Shown: piece after piece, positions 1-63,305 of the stretch
Numbering within the stretch: the stretch's first letter is position 1
Layout: each line of letters begins with the position of its first letter
Assembly: GCA_044892525.1 (NCBI GenBank)
Contig: CM097885.1
Span: forward strand, 14,882,001-14,946,000
Length of the DNA: 64,000 nt
Direction of reading: 5' to 3'
Origin: Schmidtea polychroa
Lineage: Eukaryota
The notes under the pieces: generated by a model
Told to the model about the DNA's origin: nothing
The model's input: only the letters and a program-made list of their open reading frames with translations
Databases searched by the model: none
Position numbers and translations under genes: made by a program

Positions 1-476
1 CTAGGAAGTCCTGCTCCTATGAAAATCTTACCTTTCATGGCTAATTTAACTAGAGCTCTTTGAATCTTTTCCTTGCTTGATGGATTTTGGATACTATTTA
101 AATCATGTATTAAATTCACATCTGCAACATGTCTATCTCTAAGATCTTCTGAGTTGTAAGCAATATCATGTTTTAAAGCTGCTTGATCAATTCTATTTAT
201 TGGTTCTTCTCCTTGTTTAGGATTATTATTTTCATCTAATCTAATATCTAATCTTGTTCCTGGTCCAGTATAGTTGTGATGGAATAAATGTCTTTCACCT
301 GGATATTTTTCAGTAGTAAAGGGTTTTAATAATGTTGATGTTGTTTTTAAAGATTGAAGATCACCTCCGGCTGCTAGTTTAGATCCAAGTATATGTTTTT
401 TAGTTTTAACATGAGAGGCTTTGTGATGTCTTGTAACTTGACAATGACAAGTTTCACATGTCCAATATTTACTCAT
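1..476 (-). CDS. Polinton/adintovirus PLA2-domain virion protein with N-terminal C2H2-type zinc finger (runs off the window edge)
   Basis: Not in the ORF track. Manual translation from ATG at 476: MSKYWTCETCHCQVTRHHKASHVKTKKH...HNYTGPGTRLDIRLDENNNPKQGEEPINRIDQAALKHDIAY...DRHVAD. This carries the parvovirus-VP1-type PLA2 Ca-binding loop (YxGPG) and catalytic HDxxY. It starts 13 nt after the MCP stop and has no stop before position 1. Confidence 0.88.
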   Translation of the reverse strand, partial: MSKYWTCETCHCQVTRHHKASHVKTKKHILGSKLAAGGDLQSLKTTSTLLKPFTTEKYPGERHLFHHNYTGPGTRLDIRLDENNNPKQGEEPINRIDQAALKHDIAYNSEDLRDRHVADVNLIHDLNSIQNPSSKEKIQRALVKLAMKGKIFIGAGLP

Positions 477-489
477 TTTAAAAAGTTTT

Positions 490-1788
490 TTATGAAGAAG
501 AATCACCTCGTACATTTTCAATAATTGAAATCTTTCCACCATATAATTTCATTTCTATTTTCTTTTCTTCTAATATTAATGTATATACTTTAGCTTTAAA
601 ATTAGAATCCTTTGTTATATGAAGTGTAACATCAACATTATTTATGGCTAGGCGATCATCTTGGTCTGATACATTTATACAAAATATAGAATATAAATTT
701 TTGAAATCTTCTAAACTTAATTGCGGCTCAACTTTGAAGTCGTGGCATGTTTCAATATAATTCAGGTACGGGAATATGTTTTCATTATTTTCAATATTAA
801 ATTCCATTCGATTTATTGGATAATATGAACTATTCAATTGGACCTGGATGGTTTTTAAATTATCACCCCCAATCTTTTGAATAAACAAGTTGTTGTTCTT
901 TTGGAAAGATGGATCTCCTTCTTTGAATCCAATCAAGATATATCTTGGTCGGTATGCTAGATTTGCTACCTTTATAGAATATGTTGAACCCTCTGTCATA
1001 CTAAATTCACTACAGATTCTATTTAAATAATTTACATTTATAGATTTGTTGGAATTTAATCTTTCAAGTAATTTAATTTCAGAATGTGGATTTAATGTCC
1101 ATTCAGGTATATGTAATTCAAGTGTTGATAATTTTAATTTAGCTTTTGTATCCTTATCTCCATAAAACAATCTTTTATCACCATCTAGTCTATTACAGAT
1201 GAATTCTATAAAAACATTATGAAGTATACGGTTATAGTTTTGAAGGAATCCGAACAAGTGTTTTAATTCAAAATAACCTTCAAATTTTTTCAACTTATAA
1301 AGTTCAACTCTTTTATAGTAAGCATAATTTATATCTAAACCATCTTTATCTAAATCCCCTTTATTAACATCAGGAATCCAACCTGTTAATTCACCATATT
1401 CGTTTTTATAATCACAACCAGTTAAAATAAAATTTAACATTGTAGAATATACTCCTGGATGCAAAACAGTTTCAATTTCTGATGATCCTAGTTTTAATCT
1501 CATGTTGGAGAATAAATTTGGAAAGAAATTATTTTCTAGGGTTATATCTTTGTTTGCTTCAATTTCTAATTCAATTTTATAATATAATTTGGCATTACAA
1601 ATATCTATAGGGTTTGATGTTTGAAGAGATTGAAAAACTATATCACCCCTACGATTTAAGTTTGCAATAGATCCTGAAGTTGGCGAGATTTTTAAAATAT
1701 CATTTTTCTTGATTTCATGAGTAAATTCTTTATTATAATCAAGATTTAATTTATTTTTTTCTTGAATTTTAAGATTTATATTATTCAT
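490..1788 (-). CDS. Polinton/Maverick (adintovirus-like) double jelly-roll major capsid protein
   Basis: Intact, intronless 432-aa ORF. Motifs typical of Polinton MCPs: ENNFFPNLFSNMRLKLGSSEIE...GVYST, PRYILIGF, QLNSSYYP, FKNLYSIFCINVS. Adjacent to a PLA2 gene. Confidence 0.85.
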   Translation of the reverse strand: MNNINLKIQEKNKLNLDYNKEFTHEIKKNDILKISPTSGSIANLNRRGDIVFQSLQTSNPIDICNAKLYYKIELEIEANKDITLENNFFPNLFSNMRLKLGSSEIETVLHPGVYSTMLNFILTGCDYKNEYGELTGWIPDVNKGDLDKDGLDINYAYYKRVELYKLKKFEGYFELKHLFGFLQNYNRILHNVFIEFICNRLDGDKRLFYGDKDTKAKLKLSTLELHIPEWTLNPHSEIKLLERLNSNKSINVNYLNRICSEFSMTEGSTYSIKVANLAYRPRYILIGFKEGDPSFQKNNNLFIQKIGGDNLKTIQVQLNSSYYPINRMEFNIENNENIFPYLNYIETCHDFKVEPQLSLEDFKNLYSIFCINVSDQDDRLAINNVDVTLHITKDSNFKAKVYTLILEEKKIEMKLYGGKISIIENVRGDSSS

Positions 1789-1824
1789 TTTTATAATAAA
1801 AATTTAAAAAATGATAAAAATCCG

Positions 1825-1909
1825 AACTCCGATAGCGCAGTGGGCTAGACTGGCACAGTGGTTCAAATGGATAGCGGTTCAAATCCTAACTACGGTTAGT
1901 TTTTTTTTT
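1825..1909 (+). ncRNA. Candidate Pol III (type-2 promoter) small RNA, unit 1, tRNA-like
   Basis: A-box TAGCGCAGTGG 1833-1843, B-box GGTTCAAATCC 1876-1886, CTAAC-TACG-GTTAG hairpin, T10 run 1900-1909. Does not form a full cloverleaf. Confidence 0.6.
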
Positions 1910-2039
1910 AACATAAAATAATATTAAAAATTTGAAAATAATATTGAAAATGGTGTGGGTATCTTAGATTTATATTTTATTTTATTTATTTTATTTTATT
2001 TTTTTATTAATTAAAAATTTAAAAAATGACAAAAATCCG

Positions 2040-2123
2040 AACTCCGATAGCGCGGTGGGAATAGACTGGCATTGTGGTTCAAATGCTAGCGGTTCAAATC
2101 ACGTCTGAGGTTAGTTTTTTTTT
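2040..2123 (+). ncRNA. Candidate Pol III small RNA, unit 2 (diverged tandem copy, ~215 bp period)
   Basis: A-box TAGCGCGGTGG 2048-2058, B-box GGTTCAAATCA 2091-2101, T9 run 2115-2123. Flanks are duplicated with unit 1 (about 1795-1967 vs 2011-2184). Confidence 0.55.
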
Positions 2124-2262
2124 CAACATAAAATAATATTAAAAATTTGAAAATAATATTGAAAAATGGTGTGGGTATCTTAGGAAATAAATCTTGTTTA
2201 TTTTATTTATTTATTAATTAATTAATTTTTAAACATAAATATGAAAAAAAAAATATTGAAAC

Positions 2263-2644
2263 GGGTGATGGTGGCGAACCGGTAATTATCGCCACCAGTC
2301 TTTCGAACACCCCCGGATCGATTCTATAATGTGCACATTTATTTCTTGGTTGTTTTCGGACCTCTTTCGGATTCGCTTTCGAATTCATTTGTACTTTCGA
2401 GCAGCACACTTAAAACGCCGATGAAATCGACTTCGTGAGCGAGAAGCGAATAATAAGGTGTGCTGCTATTATCGAATTGATTCTGATATATAAGTCTGGC
2501 CAGCTTGTATATTGGAAGAGATTTGATAAACGAAAGAGGTTGAAATAAAAAAAAAAAAAATGATCCGGATCAAAAAAAACTGTTGAGAGGACAGTGAAAA
2601 AAAAAAAAAATACCACTGTCCTCTCAGAGCAGTTTTACTATTTT
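2263..2644 (+). ncRNA. Candidate ~375-nt multibranched structured RNA with Pol III-like internal promoter (unit 3)
   Basis: A-box-like TGGCGAACCGG 2272-2282 and B-box-like GGATCGATTCT 2315-2325. Helices: 2269-2277/2289-2297, 2313-2320/2561-2568, 2360-2369/2531-2540, 2400-2409/2458-2467, 2481-2494/2504-2517 (3 G-U), 2584-2596/2614-2626. TTTT follows at 2633-2636 and 2641-2644. Confidence 0.55.
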
Positions 2645-2968: not shown

Positions 2969-4319
2969 GTCCTTTACAAAAAAAATTCAACTACGTTTGA
3001 AGAAATAGACGAGGAAATCCAATTAGAAAATGAAAACGCTGGAGATCAATCTGATTACGATTCAAATGAAAGTGAAACAGAAAGTGAAGAAAATCCTTCA
3101 GAACACATAAACTGCGCTCTAGCTGATTATTTTTCAACAGTTATTCAAAAAGTAAGAAAAATAGCTCGAATGTTTCGTAAATCTCCTGTTCAAAATGATG
3201 TGCTGCAAAAAGCCTGTAAAAATAAAATTGATAAGGAATTAAATTTGATAATTGATACCTCCACAAGATGGAATTCGCTGCTGGCTACGGTTCTTGGAAA
3301 TGAAAGACGTTATAAAAACAGTTTTACATGATTTGTCTGTTGTTCACATTTTTCCTTCCAATTATGAACTAAATGTTATTTCGGATATTGTCGAATCATT
3401 GGAAGTAATTGAAGTAAGCTCCTTGGCCCTGGGCAGGAAAGATTGCAACTTAATACAAGCAACAAAAATCTTTGAATTCTTATTGACAAAATTAAAAGAG
3501 CAATCCCACTCAAGTGTGCTGGCACAAAAGTTTTGCACGTCAATGACTACCAGAATTATTGAGAGAAGGAACCCAAATCTTGAAGGATTACTGTTGCATT
3601 TGGATGACCCAATAAAATATATAAGAAAGTGTATCGGATGAAAACTTTGTTTTTAAAAAACCAACCAAAAATGAGCTCGCTAATACCGCTAAAGATTTTG
3701 CTAATAGGTTACTTATACCGCTTACAGAAAATCCATCCGAAGCTGATTCTGATTACAAAGATGAAAACGATGTTATAGAAATTGTATCTGAAAAAAGAGC
3801 AAAATATTCAAAATCAGATGAGTTACAGGAATTCTTAACTAAAGAACTTGCTAAACCCAATTCAACAGCTGCATTCAACTATAGTTTACAAGATATAAAA
3901 AGGGAAATGATGGTTTACGAACACAGTAAAATAAAAACAGATTTACAACATAAAAAAAGCGTGTGGCCATCATCAGTGGAGGCGGAAAGAAGCTTTAGTG
4001 CTGCTGGTTTGTTCGTTACAAAGCTCCGGACATCCTTGAACGACAATACGTTGGATAAACTCTGCTTCCTACGTGCACATTTATTAAATGATAAAAATAC
4101 AAACTAAATATTTTATAATGTATTATTTTACTTTTTATTTATATATGTACTGAATTTAATTTGAAGTGAAATAAACTTTTATTTTTGTTAAAATGCAGAA
4201 GTTATTTACTTAAAATACATATAAAAAAAATTAATAAATTAATCGATTAATCGAATCAAAAACTGAAAAATTAATCGTTAATCATTTTTCTCTAAAATCG
4301 ATTAATCAACCATGCCCTA
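2969..4319 (+). mobile_element. hAT transposon, 3' half, frameshifted transposase
   Basis: VLYKK...IQKVRKIARMFRKSPVQNDVL...DTSTRWNS, and C-terminal PSSVEAERSFSAAGLFVTKLRTSLND (dimerisation motif). Subterminal TTAATCGATT repeats; right end ...CCATGCCCTA at 4319. Confidence 0.9.
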
Positions 4320-9625: not shown

Positions 9626-10632
9626 TGTTGGACCAGAAGGCCGATAATTAAAAACAAATAAATTAATTAAAATTAGCAGTCAGACTAATGCACACATCAT
9701 GAGCACCTTAGCTAACGCAAAAACCCAGAAGACTCATCAACTCGCGACATCGCCATGTTCGAAATAAGTAAGTTTATGTAACGAATCTCCAAGCTACAAA
9801 ATAAAGTAAATCAGATAGAGGCCACCTGCCCCCAACCAGTGCAGGGTTAATAGTTGAGCGACAGCAATGGAATTTTAAGAAGAGGCAGCACGAATTATTG
9901 TGCAAGACCTACACCAAAGGCGAATTGGAAAGTCGTTTACCGAAAGTATTCGATCCAGCAATGCTCGAGATCATGCCGATTCCACATTTAGAAGTGACTG
10001 TAAATTCTGAGACTAAAATTCATGCGAGTAGTGCTGCTATCTCAGTTAAGGTCACTCATCCAAGTGCATCTACTATTCAGGTCTTAATAGACCCCAAAAA
10101 GAACCATTACACAAGAACACTCAGACAGCTAAGTCACGGTGGGTCGCGGAGCTGGTAGCCCAATCTCAAGTCCATATGTCAAAACCGTCTGAACCTCCAG
10201 TGTCATTACATGTAACTCAAGTTCCGCCACAATTCAATGCATATCTGGAAGCTCCAAATTTTGGACTCGAATGGCAACTGTAGATCTCTGATTGTGAATG
10301 CTTCATAATTATATGTATTGTTGTCTTGATAATTTTGATCATATGTTTTTCTTTCCCAGTAGTTCTCGTATATATATTTACTTCACTTTTGTTTTATTTT
10401 TTGACTCCAACAACTAATTTTGATATACAATATTGTCTTTTGGTATGACCACTGATAAGTTTTTAAGTTAAGACGTAAGTCCTTCCATCGGCAGTCCGTT
10501 TATTTTATGTTTGGCTGAGTCGAGCGGTCTGAGGTTTTCCGTGTATACGAAAGTTCAAGACCCCTAGTGTTTTACCGAATCACTTGAAGATCATCTGAGT
10601 CTGATAAGGCAAATGTCCAAAGGACGCCAACA
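9626..10632. mobile_element. Probable solo LTR (or Ginger-like element)
   Basis: TGTTGG...CCAACA termini with 4-bp TSD GCAC; GC-richer than the flanks. Confidence 0.7.
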
Positions 10633-17507: not shown

Positions 17508-17879
17508 AAAAGAATGTTTGATTGGCGTTATCTTATATTATTATGATTATTATTATTATTATTATTATTATTATTTTTATTTTTATTATTATTATTATTA
17601 TTGAAATCAGTTGCTGTAAAATCTAAAGGCAGGTTTGATCAGAAATATTAAACTTAATTTTGTTTGTATCTAAAATTACACCTTACTATTAATAATTGAC
17701 CGTTGATATATTGCATCCGAATTTCCAACTGATCTCTTATATCATGACCTTTGGATCGTATCAGTTTAGATGGTCCCTGGTAACTATCGATTACATCAAC
17801 ACGCTTACTGATCATACATATGCATATTTTATATACATACCTTTTATTTAATAATTGATCAGAAAAAAAATCAACTAAC

Positions 17880-18540
17880 CAATCACTGGCAATCGGCGCA
17901 TGGACCTCGGAGCATTTGAAGATACTATTACCACGTACATCGTCATGCTGAGGACAAGAGATAGAGCAACAGATAACCTATCGCCCGTATCATCGAGAGT
18001 GAATATAAGACATGCTAATCCTGAAAGCATTGAAAATGGAATCAAAACCAAAACGACAAAATAAAGCGGTTGTCTTTTCAAATGAATACTGACTCGAATA
18101 TATTGGTAGGAAACATTGAGATCACTCCGATACTTCTTTGGTGTAAAATCAATGGCTTCTATTTGCCATTCACTGACATTGGAGTTGGGCAAATAACTAT
18201 TGTCCACCGCTGAGCCTCTCTGGACTGGGTAAATAATTATTTGTTTTTCCGAACTTTGCCAAGGATTAATAACAAGATAACAAGTCTGATAGTCAAATGG
18301 AAAGAAACTGACATCCAAAGGACAGGTGACATCGAGCACAGCTCCATGCAACCAAGTGACTACACCTGTGTAGTCAACTGAGATTCTAGATTGAGCTATG
18401 GTACTAAAATCAAAGTTTTTGCTATGTTTGACATTCATCACACCGATATCTGGAAGCCACATATCCTTGGCGAGAATTGAAATAGAGCTAAGATTCCCAT
18501 AAGCTGCCGGATTCCATTGAAGCCGCAGATCTTTCCATAC
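17880..18540 (-). CDS. nAChR-like subunit exon (ligand-binding domain, Cys-loop, TM1, TM2)
   Basis: ttatag|VWKDLRLQWNPAAYGN...WLPDI...CPLDVSFFPFDYQTC...LKRQPLYF...TGDRLSVALSLVLSMTMY...PVIG|gttagt. 661 nt, phase 0 to phase 1. Confidence 0.95.
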
Positions 18541-60979: not shown

Positions 60980-61694
60980 TTAAACAAAGACATATGACTC
61001 ATCAAGGTCATTGAAACAAAGACCATGACTCATAGTATGACTCATCAAAATTCTCAAGGTCATTTAAACAAAGACCATGACTCATCCTATGACTCATCAA
61101 GGTCATTTTCAAGGTCGTATGACTCATAATATGACTCATCAAGGTCAAAAAAATTTTCAAGGTCATTTAAACAAAGACCATGACTCATCAAGGTCATTTT
61201 CAAGGTCAAATGAGTCATACTATGACTCATATGACCTTGAAAAAATTTTTCAAGGTCGTATGACTCATAGTATGACTCATCAAAATTCTCAAGGTCATTT
61301 AAACAAAGACCATGACTCATATTATGACGCATCAAGGTCATTTTCAAGGTCAAATGAGTCATAATATGACTCATATGGCCTTGGAAATTTTTTTTCAAGG
61401 TCATCTGACTCATCCTGTGACTCATCAAGGTCATTTTCAAGGTCAAATGACTCGTACTATGACTCATATGACCTTGAAAAAAATTTCTCAAGGTCATATG
61501 ACTCATACTATGACTCATCGAAATTTTTTCAAGGTCATATGACTCATACCATGACTCATCAAAAATTTTCAAGGTCATTTTCAAGGTCATCTGAGTCATC
61601 CTATGACTCATCAAGGTCATTTTCAAGGTCGCATGACTCATCCAAGGTCATTGCCAAGGTCATATGAGTCATCGCGATGACTCATCAAGGTCAT
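60980..61694. promoter_or_regulatory. Complex repeat built from TGA(C/G)TCA, TCAAGGTCA and AACAAAG motifs (candidate enhancer or origin)
   Basis: Manual count: about 27 TGA(C/G)TCA, about 21 TCAAGGTCA (either strand) and 5 AAACAAAGA in ~715 bp. Confidence 0.6.
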
Positions 61695-61855
61695 ATTATT
61701 ATTTTTAAAAATATTATTATTTTTATTATTATTTTTAAAAATATTATTATTTTATTTTTAATTTTTTCAAAGTTCCCGCCAACGAAAATTAATAATCGAT
61801 AGCGCATTTTAAAGCTCAATCCAAGACCTTTCGAATGAGCTATATATCTTGTTAC

Positions 61856-63141: not shown

Positions 63142-63305
63142 TGATATAGCTGCATGCTCACTGCAGACTATATATAAAAATACTGATATAGCTGCATGCT
63201 CACTGCAGACTATATATAAAAATACTGATATAGCTGCATGCTCACTGCAGACTATATATAAAAAAACTGTTATAGCTGCATGCTCACTGCAGACTATATA
63301 AAAAT
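63142..63305. repeat. Four tandem 42-bp units, each an imperfect hairpin
   Basis: TGATATAGCTGCATGCTCACTGCAGACTATATATAAAAATAC starting at 63142, 63184, 63226 and 63268. Confidence 0.95.

Follow-up and report, generated by a model that had tools for sequence, protein, structure and literature searches.

Polintons are generally regarded as relatives of adenoviruses. The adenovirus VA RNAs are transcribed from box A/B promoters, possibly descend from tRNA genes and act as Dicer decoys (passages in PMC7589676), and the TMERs of murine gammaherpesvirus 68 are tRNA-like RNA polymerase III (Pol III) RNAs clustered at the genome end (excerpts of PMC4337559). A scan of 8300 genomes of Polinton-like viruses (PLVs) of protists with Rfam and ARAGORN yielded tRNAs, snRNAs, snoRNAs and miRNAs (sections of PMC12220804). 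Our search of the literature, with most subscription journals and Repbase outside its scope, turned up no account of Pol III RNA genes in animal Polintons, and the terms 'VA RNA' and 'non-coding' are absent from the main text of the adintovirus paper (PMC8502044). Here we describe a cluster of three Pol III-type units at one end of a Polinton in the planarian Schmidtea polychroa, within a stretch of 64,000 nucleotides (the window; GCA_044892525.1, contig CM097885.1, positions 14,882,001 to 14,946,000, forward strand). We put at about 0.52 the probability that these units make up an accessory cassette for Pol III RNAs of viral origin, the long member of which serves as an RNA-silencing decoy or precursor.

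Polintons, also known as Mavericks, are marked by genes for a protein-primed DNA polymerase B, an rve integrase, a packaging ATPase and a double jelly-roll capsid protein, and by terminal inverted repeats (AGT...ACT) with a 6-bp target duplication. Parts of PMC8502044 agree on the gene hallmarks. The carrier had been taken for a Polinton and proved to be one, with diagnostic genes, terminal inverted repeats and a 6-bp target-site duplication. Positions 1–2968 of the window form the right end of an element of ~14 kb and include, on the minus strand, the start of a PLA2-like/integrase open reading frame that leaves the window (3–542; PF08398, E = 3.9e-9) and the gene for the double jelly-roll major capsid protein (490–1788, 432 residues; PF21738, E = 7.6e-27). 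In another copy (L033) the PLA2 and rve domains are joined in one frame of 464 residues. Upstream of the window the element carries an ATPase, a polymerase B and a pX-like frame with a weak match (E = 7.7e-4); the domains at L032 are PF03175, PF00665 and PF04665. The right terminal inverted repeat (2684–2968, ending in ACTACT) is matched by the element's left end ~14 kb upstream (L031), which has one AGT triplet fewer, and the 6 bases that follow it (2969–2974) also flank the left end. The repeat can itself fold back, imperfectly and over much of its length (−107 kcal/mol as RNA), its two ends being ~82% matched. Between it and the capsid start codon lies the cluster, oriented outwards. The capsid gene has 3228 first-look candidates in the host genome, and the 97 that were scored are all 96–100% identical.

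That the cluster might be the terminal repeat itself was rejected for the window copy, whose repeat is confined to 2684–2968, and is true only of long-repeat variants. At L033/L035 and L036/L038 (G000:C4, near 90.33–90.35 and 89.41–89.43 Mb) the terminal repeats have grown to ~1.1 kb, with most of the RNA cassette at both ends and a remnant of the older repeat just inside. Right after the Polinton end in the window, positions 2990–4110 of the plus strand hold a fragmented transposase-like stretch, presumably hAT-like from its look, in which the one reading frame scanned had no Pfam match. Elsewhere in the window we observed a host exon for part of a nicotinic acetylcholine receptor subunit (17875–18462, minus strand), which places the host with the flatworms (best named relatives in flukes, 73–75%), a degenerate tandem repeat region (60985–61697) and three near-perfect 42-bp repeats (63142–63304).

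Each unit has the anatomy of a type-2 Pol III gene, with internal A and B boxes at tRNA-like spacing and then a run of at least four T, as the preliminary description had set out. The box pairs start, on the plus strand, at 1833/1876, 2048/2091 and 2272/2315. The common 43-nt spacing is exact in its coordinates, but what had been presented as a threefold regularity counts only twice, because units 1 and 2 are one tandem duplication (~220 nt, 82% identical over about 280 aligned bases) and unit 3 is thus the only independent case. A fixed-spacing A/B pattern, written after the pairs had been seen, matched exactly these three places in 64 kb and none in 100 shuffles. Among element copies the spacing is mostly 42–44 nt, but it is 58 or 28 nt in some, through gain or loss of an inner 15-nt repeat. 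A further A/B-like pair with a spacing of ~40 nt lies outside the Polinton at 10512–10561 (plus strand) and is possibly the head of a tRNA-derived repeat.

Unit 1 (1824–1909, with a putative start) comprises an A box (1833–1843), inner A-like and B-like copies (1851–1870), a B box (1876–1886), a small 3′ hairpin (1886–1899) and the expected T10 run (1900–1909); unit 2 (2039–2123, start likewise putative) has its A box at 2048–2058, its B box at 2091–2100 and its T9 run at 2115–2123. Unit 3 is a structured Pol III-type RNA gene of ~380 nt (2260–2644, both limits putative). Its A box (2272–2282), one mismatch away from the consensus, sits within a 5′ hairpin (2263–2312) and is followed by the B box (2315–2324), a T4 run (2353–2356), a multibranch domain (2358–2542) and the previously noted terminal hairpin (2576–2636) with T4 runs at 2633 and 2641. 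The reported recurrence of spacer sequence is real: the spacer after unit 1 resembles the start of unit 3 with a score reached by 1 of 500 shuffles.

The short units descend, as judged from their alignments, from a tRNA gene, and of the three host tRNAs compared tRNA-Cys fits best: units 1 and 2 score 42.5 and 38 against it, values reached by 0 of 500 shuffles, and unit 1 scores 36 against tRNA-Lys and 30.5 against tRNA-Arg, the boxes in common raising all these scores. With only three tRNAs compared and the boxes shared, descent from tRNA-Cys in particular is likely rather than proven. A sibling short unit of other copies aligns to the whole tRNA model at 21.9 bits (RF00005 cut-off 29) and has the D arm, a GCA loop and the B box in common with the host tRNA-Cys gene. 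No unit is a real tRNA, as had been stated: ARAGORN returned 0 in the window, RF00005 gave no match to units 1–2 in Rfam at E ≤ 10, and no cloverleaf was found. Over 51 copies the B box of the short unit does not vary (flanks, p 0.26–0.28). There is hardly any variation in the A box and the inner B-like copy, and the pair of inner copies, A-like and B-like, is conserved (p 0.018) with no recurrent change. The flanks vary more than capsid fourfold-degenerate sites, in part because paralogues are mixed. Folds differ between copies (window z 0.02 for unit 1 and −2.3 for unit 2), and an acceptor-type stem common to the short units was rejected, as their 5′ and 3′ ends are variable and do not match up. 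By this comparison, what the short units keep is promoter boxes, length and a U-rich end, not the cloverleaf.

Two side observations concern related sequences. A third type of short unit (L101, also L050 and L173) contains the 8-mer TCACCGGG, which we take to be the 5′ end of the miR-35/36 family. In the host, long tandem arrays were seen for tRNA-Cys (281-bp period, 978 pattern matches), tRNA-Lys (424 bp), tRNA-Arg (278 bp) and 7SL (593 bp).

Because units 1–2 keep their boxes and have no common fold, the TFIIIC or insulator sites that the preliminary description gave as an alternative are retained as a reading of these two units. In its full form this explanation holds that the cluster acts in cis: TFIIIC and Pol III at the boxes would make a chromatin barrier just inside the element end, shielding the promoter of the capsid or polymerase gene from heterochromatin of the flanks or seeded by piRNAs, and the RNAs would be by-products. 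The conserved inner box copies in units that lack structure fit such a role, as does the position of the short units at the boundary of the terminal repeat and the first gene at either end of the element. Fission yeast tRNA genes are Pol III-dependent heterochromatin barriers (part of PMC2040200) and planarian Polintons are repressed at the chromatin level (parts of PMC8532177). Against it, a barrier leaves unexplained the 290 nt of hairpins with G-U pairing kept downstream of the unit 3 boxes, and the window element has the cassette at one end only, with sister subfamilies managing without it. We think it unlikely as an account of the whole cluster; it suits units 1–2 best and may be right for them even should unit 3 be a genuine RNA gene.

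The three members differ in kind: all have A/B boxes, but whereas units 1–2 are without a common fold, unit 3 is structured. Its predicted fold reaches −133.9 kcal/mol on the plus strand (z −8.98) and −112 kcal/mol on the minus strand (z −6.34). This asymmetry over the whole strand was weakened as proof of an RNA by the terminal repeat control, which also folds better on plus than on minus (−107 versus −84). A GGGU/ACCC pairing closes the 5′ domain, a predicted helix (2313–2319/2562–2568) brings the B-box region together with the 3′ portion, and folding stops at the next T4 runs. Three hairpins stand out on the plus strand: H2 (2400–2467), with a 12-bp stem and z −4.4; H3 (2469–2529), of pre-miRNA size with 25 bp and a 7-nt loop; and the terminal H4 (2576–2636), with a poly-A loop and z −9.4. 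H3 folds on the plus strand only (−25.1 kcal/mol, z −6.7, versus −7.5 kcal/mol, z −1.5, on minus). An alignment fold of 31 copies retained the main helices.

Several candidate identities for this structure were tried. A closing helix and a 3′ hairpin also make up the layout of 7SK, and 7SK Rfam models gave no match to unit 3 at E ≤ 10. No Rfam family reached its cut-off, miRNA-family matches on H4 being weak and far below it, and membership of the vault family had no Rfam support. Origin from 7SL was rejected, the likeness to host 7SL being reached by 161 of 300 shuffles for the whole unit and by 465 of 500 for its 5′ end; the score of the unit 3 head against tRNA-Cys was reached by 120 of 500. 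Compared with sequences of the element and its sister elements, the hairpin arms had no informative match, only poly-A-type ones.

The distribution of alleles among copies points to selection on the structure of a plus-strand RNA. From 146 BLAST hits we kept full-length copies only, giving 93 distinct sequences, and called an allele recurrent if it occurred in at least 5 of them. Among 81 base pairs with a probability of at least 0.9, pairing was kept by 8 of 8 recurrent alleles versus 15 of 66 rare ones (Fisher p 3e-5), and among pairs with a probability of at least 0.5 by 10 of 14 versus 18 of 78 (p 7e-4); these counts are to be read with the structure predicted from one copy, the copies related to one another and only two pairs changed on both sides. 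In the same test the foldback of the terminal repeat (36 copies), used as a control, kept pairing in only 4 of 11. Recurrently polymorphic pairs showed G-U on the plus strand nine times and A-C once (p 0.011), whereas rare alleles were even (15 versus 18). Individual helices carry such changes: pair 2408/2459 of H2 is A-U, G-U and G-C among copies, five high-confidence pairs of H3 alternate between G-U and Watson–Crick, and pair 2588/2622 of H4 has gone from A-U to G-C in 16 copies. Wobble pairing kept on one strand would speak for a plus-strand RNA, since a DNA cruciform should favour neither strand. In keeping with the non-coding RNA first proposed here, recurrent alleles keep pairing and favour G-U on the plus strand, and unit 3 is very probably a transcribed RNA under structural selection. 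As proof of that selection, divergence lost weight: unit 3 differs by 0.028–0.034 and capsid fourfold-degenerate sites by 0.090, but the AT-rich spacer is equally low (0.022), so the low value may reflect recent spread of the cassette or conversion.

How the hairpins come to be transcribed bears on which polymerase makes them. The T4 run at 2353–2356, overlooked in the preliminary description, is present in 93 of 93 copies, and T4 is also the first run of at least four T after the host tRNA-Cys gene (T7 after Lys, T6 after Arg, T5 after 7SL), so that much transcription may stop before the hairpins. The ~95-nt form up to the internal run has no notable fold (z −0.6). All high-confidence structural changes of unit 3 lie downstream of this run, so a long form must arise, either by read-through or from another polymerase. 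Read-through has parallels in the alternative stop of TMER1 (a portion of PMC4337559) and in the occasional passage of VA RNAI transcription to a second stop (a portion of PMC7589676).

The hairpins could instead be a real RNA that forms part of an extended transcript, produced by Pol II or by read-through, such as a pri-miRNA-like RNA initiated at the divergent promoter of the capsid or polymerase gene; Pol III would then make nothing but short forms ending at the first T run. Both the invariance of the internal T4, in a host that appears to use T4 after tRNA-Cys, and the placing of the structural changes beyond it lend this account some weight. It is nonetheless distinctly improbable, because the helix 2313–2319/2562–2568 would tie the B-box region to the 3′ part, the structure ends at T4 runs, and the cassette moves with its boxes as a block between element ends and into gene-less repeats. 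We consider it probable that Pol III makes the unit 3 RNA.

The cassette is part of the element and is copied along with the Polinton. Capsid searches picked 76 loci, 65 of them distinct, which are the best scorers to three queries rather than a random draw; beside the capsid gene 51 of the 65 carry unit 3 in full and 5 carry part of it, 1 has short units only and 8 have nothing, so that a full or partial unit 3 adjoins 56 of 65 copies. Layouts vary, with one or two units of the window type, or two other short types, ahead of unit 3, and the flanks of the units are common to different copies. The cassette-free capsid loci are sister subfamilies in which the position is taken by different terminal repeats or different genes. 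None of the 8 stretches from the far ends of these elements contained a unit, and 5 of the 8 showed polymerase and terminus, meaning that the cassette is wholly absent from those five; their polymerases are 57–63% identical to that of the window element in the best segments. Missing from 8 of 65 capsid-gene ends, the cassette is thus accessory. Across the genome the unit 3 box pattern gave 2811 matches and its reversed control 0, the former number being similar to that of the capsid candidates (3228); the general A/B pattern has 7972 and 0, host tRNA genes included, and counts from variable-gap patterns may include double counting.

The first 30 A/B-pattern matches on C1, which fall into 20 places, served as the sample for the SINE question. 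Of these loci, 11 are neighbours of a capsid gene, 11 of a polymerase gene and 2 of some other gene of the element; gene-less repeats account for 4 and a tandem array for 2. The orientation reported earlier, divergent from the capsid gene, holds for the window copy, but in other copies (11 of 30 loci) the cassette is at the polymerase end. One of the gene-less repeats has inverted arms of ~5 kb, with the cassette as the loop that joins them. By place, 17 of 20 adjoin Polinton genes, 2 are gene-less repeats with the cassette flanks and 1 is an orphan array, and a module that sits beside Polinton genes at 17 of 20 places is fixed cargo, not a free, dispersed SINE. It would be very improbable that the units are SINE insertions or dead captured pieces of tRNA genes, carried as neutral hitchhikers. 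They are tRNA-derived, dispensable and variable in number and order, and at 1 of the 20 places an array has no Polinton gene within 1.5 kb, all of which neutral remnants would explain; but even the two places without genes carry the same cassette flanks, the units end in oligo-T and not in an A tail, and the invariant B box and structure-keeping alleles speak against neutral decay. The array in question (L079:770–1830; G000:C1, near 12–13 kb) holds three Cys-type units in 243-bp tandem repeats, preceded by a unit of the third type and one more tRNA-like A/B unit.

Subfamily mosaics among these elements point to frequent swapping of modules. L170, L174, L177, L183 and L161 with L219–L226 have capsid DNA 90–93% identical, polymerases only ~60% identical and differing terminal repeats; at L171 and L160 the RNA cassette is joined to those other terminal repeats. 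Capsid relatives in other species were found at 73–74% and 26–61% identity, and none was found among viral contigs. Eighteen metagenome loci showed no A/B pair, none of the 18 being shown to reach an element end. In a search of the planarian's own genome for more divergent capsid families, two outside queries led back to the same family and its sister subfamilies (88–100% DNA identity).

Least credible is that the hairpins work as single-stranded DNA when the element is replicated, packaged or integrated: they adjoin the terminal repeat, itself a long foldback, and also fold as DNA (−71.9 kcal/mol on plus), but their recurrent changes favour G-U on one strand, unlike those of the repeat, sister elements keep intact ends and target duplications without the cassette, and boxes and T-runs would go unexplained.

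We return to the reading of the cluster as a cassette of virus-encoded Pol III RNAs. Host TFIIIC would bind the internal A/B boxes and Pol III would transcribe outwards, to the element end, producing from units 1–2 U-tailed RNAs of ~80 nt and from unit 3 either a ~95-nt form, where it stops at the internal T4, or by read-through a ~375–385-nt form with three long hairpins. We hypothesize that the long RNA, made from thousands of templates, loads or saturates the double-stranded RNA machinery of the host (Dicer, Exportin-5 and the feed lines of Argonaute/PIWI), or alternatively that it is cut into small RNAs; either route would ease silencing of the element, as with adenovirus VA RNAs and gammaherpesvirus TMERs. 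Short units would most likely be low-specificity decoys, or act mainly through their promoters. Planarian Polintons are silenced by piRNAs and repressed by SMEDWI-2 (parts of PMC8532177), which would put pressure on the element to answer, and dispensable, swappable cargo would fit a host-conflict gene. We regard the odds that unit 3 is a counter-silencing decoy or small-RNA precursor as evenly balanced. Only tentatively do we extend this to animal Polintons at large, which would then encode Pol III counter-silencing RNAs of their own, consisting of swappable tRNA-derived decoys and a multi-hairpin RNA that occupies Dicer and PIWI.

A structured RNA under selection argues that Polintons do more than sit as fossils, and it supplies a candidate anti-silencing factor in an animal with piRNA-targeted Polintons and routine RNAi, where subfamilies with and without the cassette offer a natural control. 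Being below Rfam cut-offs and unseen by ARAGORN, such cassettes would be missed by standard scans. If the proposal is right, ~2,800 templates in this genome could make the RNA an abundant one that influences how transposons are controlled in planarian stem cells, and VA-type RNAs would arise repeatedly in the Polinton–adenovirus lineage from captured tRNA genes.

Set beside known systems, the cassette shares with PLVs the capacity of Polinton-type elements to carry RNA genes, but PLV RNAs match known families and are read as codon compensation (sections of PMC12220804). The units here are below Rfam cut-offs, do not fold as tRNAs and include a new structured RNA. With tRNA-derived SINEs they have in common a degenerate tRNA head, intact A/B boxes and thousands of copies, and they differ in being copied within the Polinton, not as free insertions, and in their oligo-T ends. 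A/B boxes are likewise common to tDNA chromatin barriers, barrier activity of the cassette being putative. EBV EBERs are viral Pol III RNAs with type-2 promoters (parts of PMC8223928) and the BLV pre-miRNAs are also viral Pol III RNAs (PMC12498455). Neither has a sequence or Rfam match to the cassette. The BLV Pol III units are single short hairpins.

The likeness to VA and EBER RNAs drawn in the preliminary description holds for mechanism only; length and fold differ, and there is no Rfam match. VA RNA I and II are tandem genes with internal box A/B, oligo-T stops and a possible tRNA origin, and their long stems as possible Dicer substrates or decoys, with occasional read-through to a second stop, would also have counterparts here (passages in PMC7589676). 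VA RNAs are ~160 nt long with terminal, central and apical domains, whereas the RNAs here would be ~80 and ~380 nt, the long one multibranched, and the Rfam VA model had no match at E ≤ 10. The GGGU/ACCC pairing that closes the 5′ domain of unit 3 is found in VA RNA in the central domain, a likeness that may be chance. TMERs, for their part, resemble the cassette in that several uncharged, tRNA-like Pol III units stand together at the end of a genome, that hairpins follow the promoter portion and an alternative stop precedes the first stem-loop (excerpts of PMC4337559), and that A boxes are multiplied (excerpts of PMC8223928). They differ in that here tRNA-derived units and hairpin RNA belong to distinct genes, unit 3 having a leader without significant tRNA-Cys likeness or cloverleaf and units 1–2 no pre-miRNA hairpin; the sequences do not match, and here an integrating flatworm Polinton is the carrier, with candidate hairpins known from sequence. 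No member of the VA family, and probably none of the TMER family, the cassette by its anatomy resembles both VA RNAs and TMERs, and, its short units being tRNA-derived, the TMER cluster parallels it no less closely than VA RNA does.
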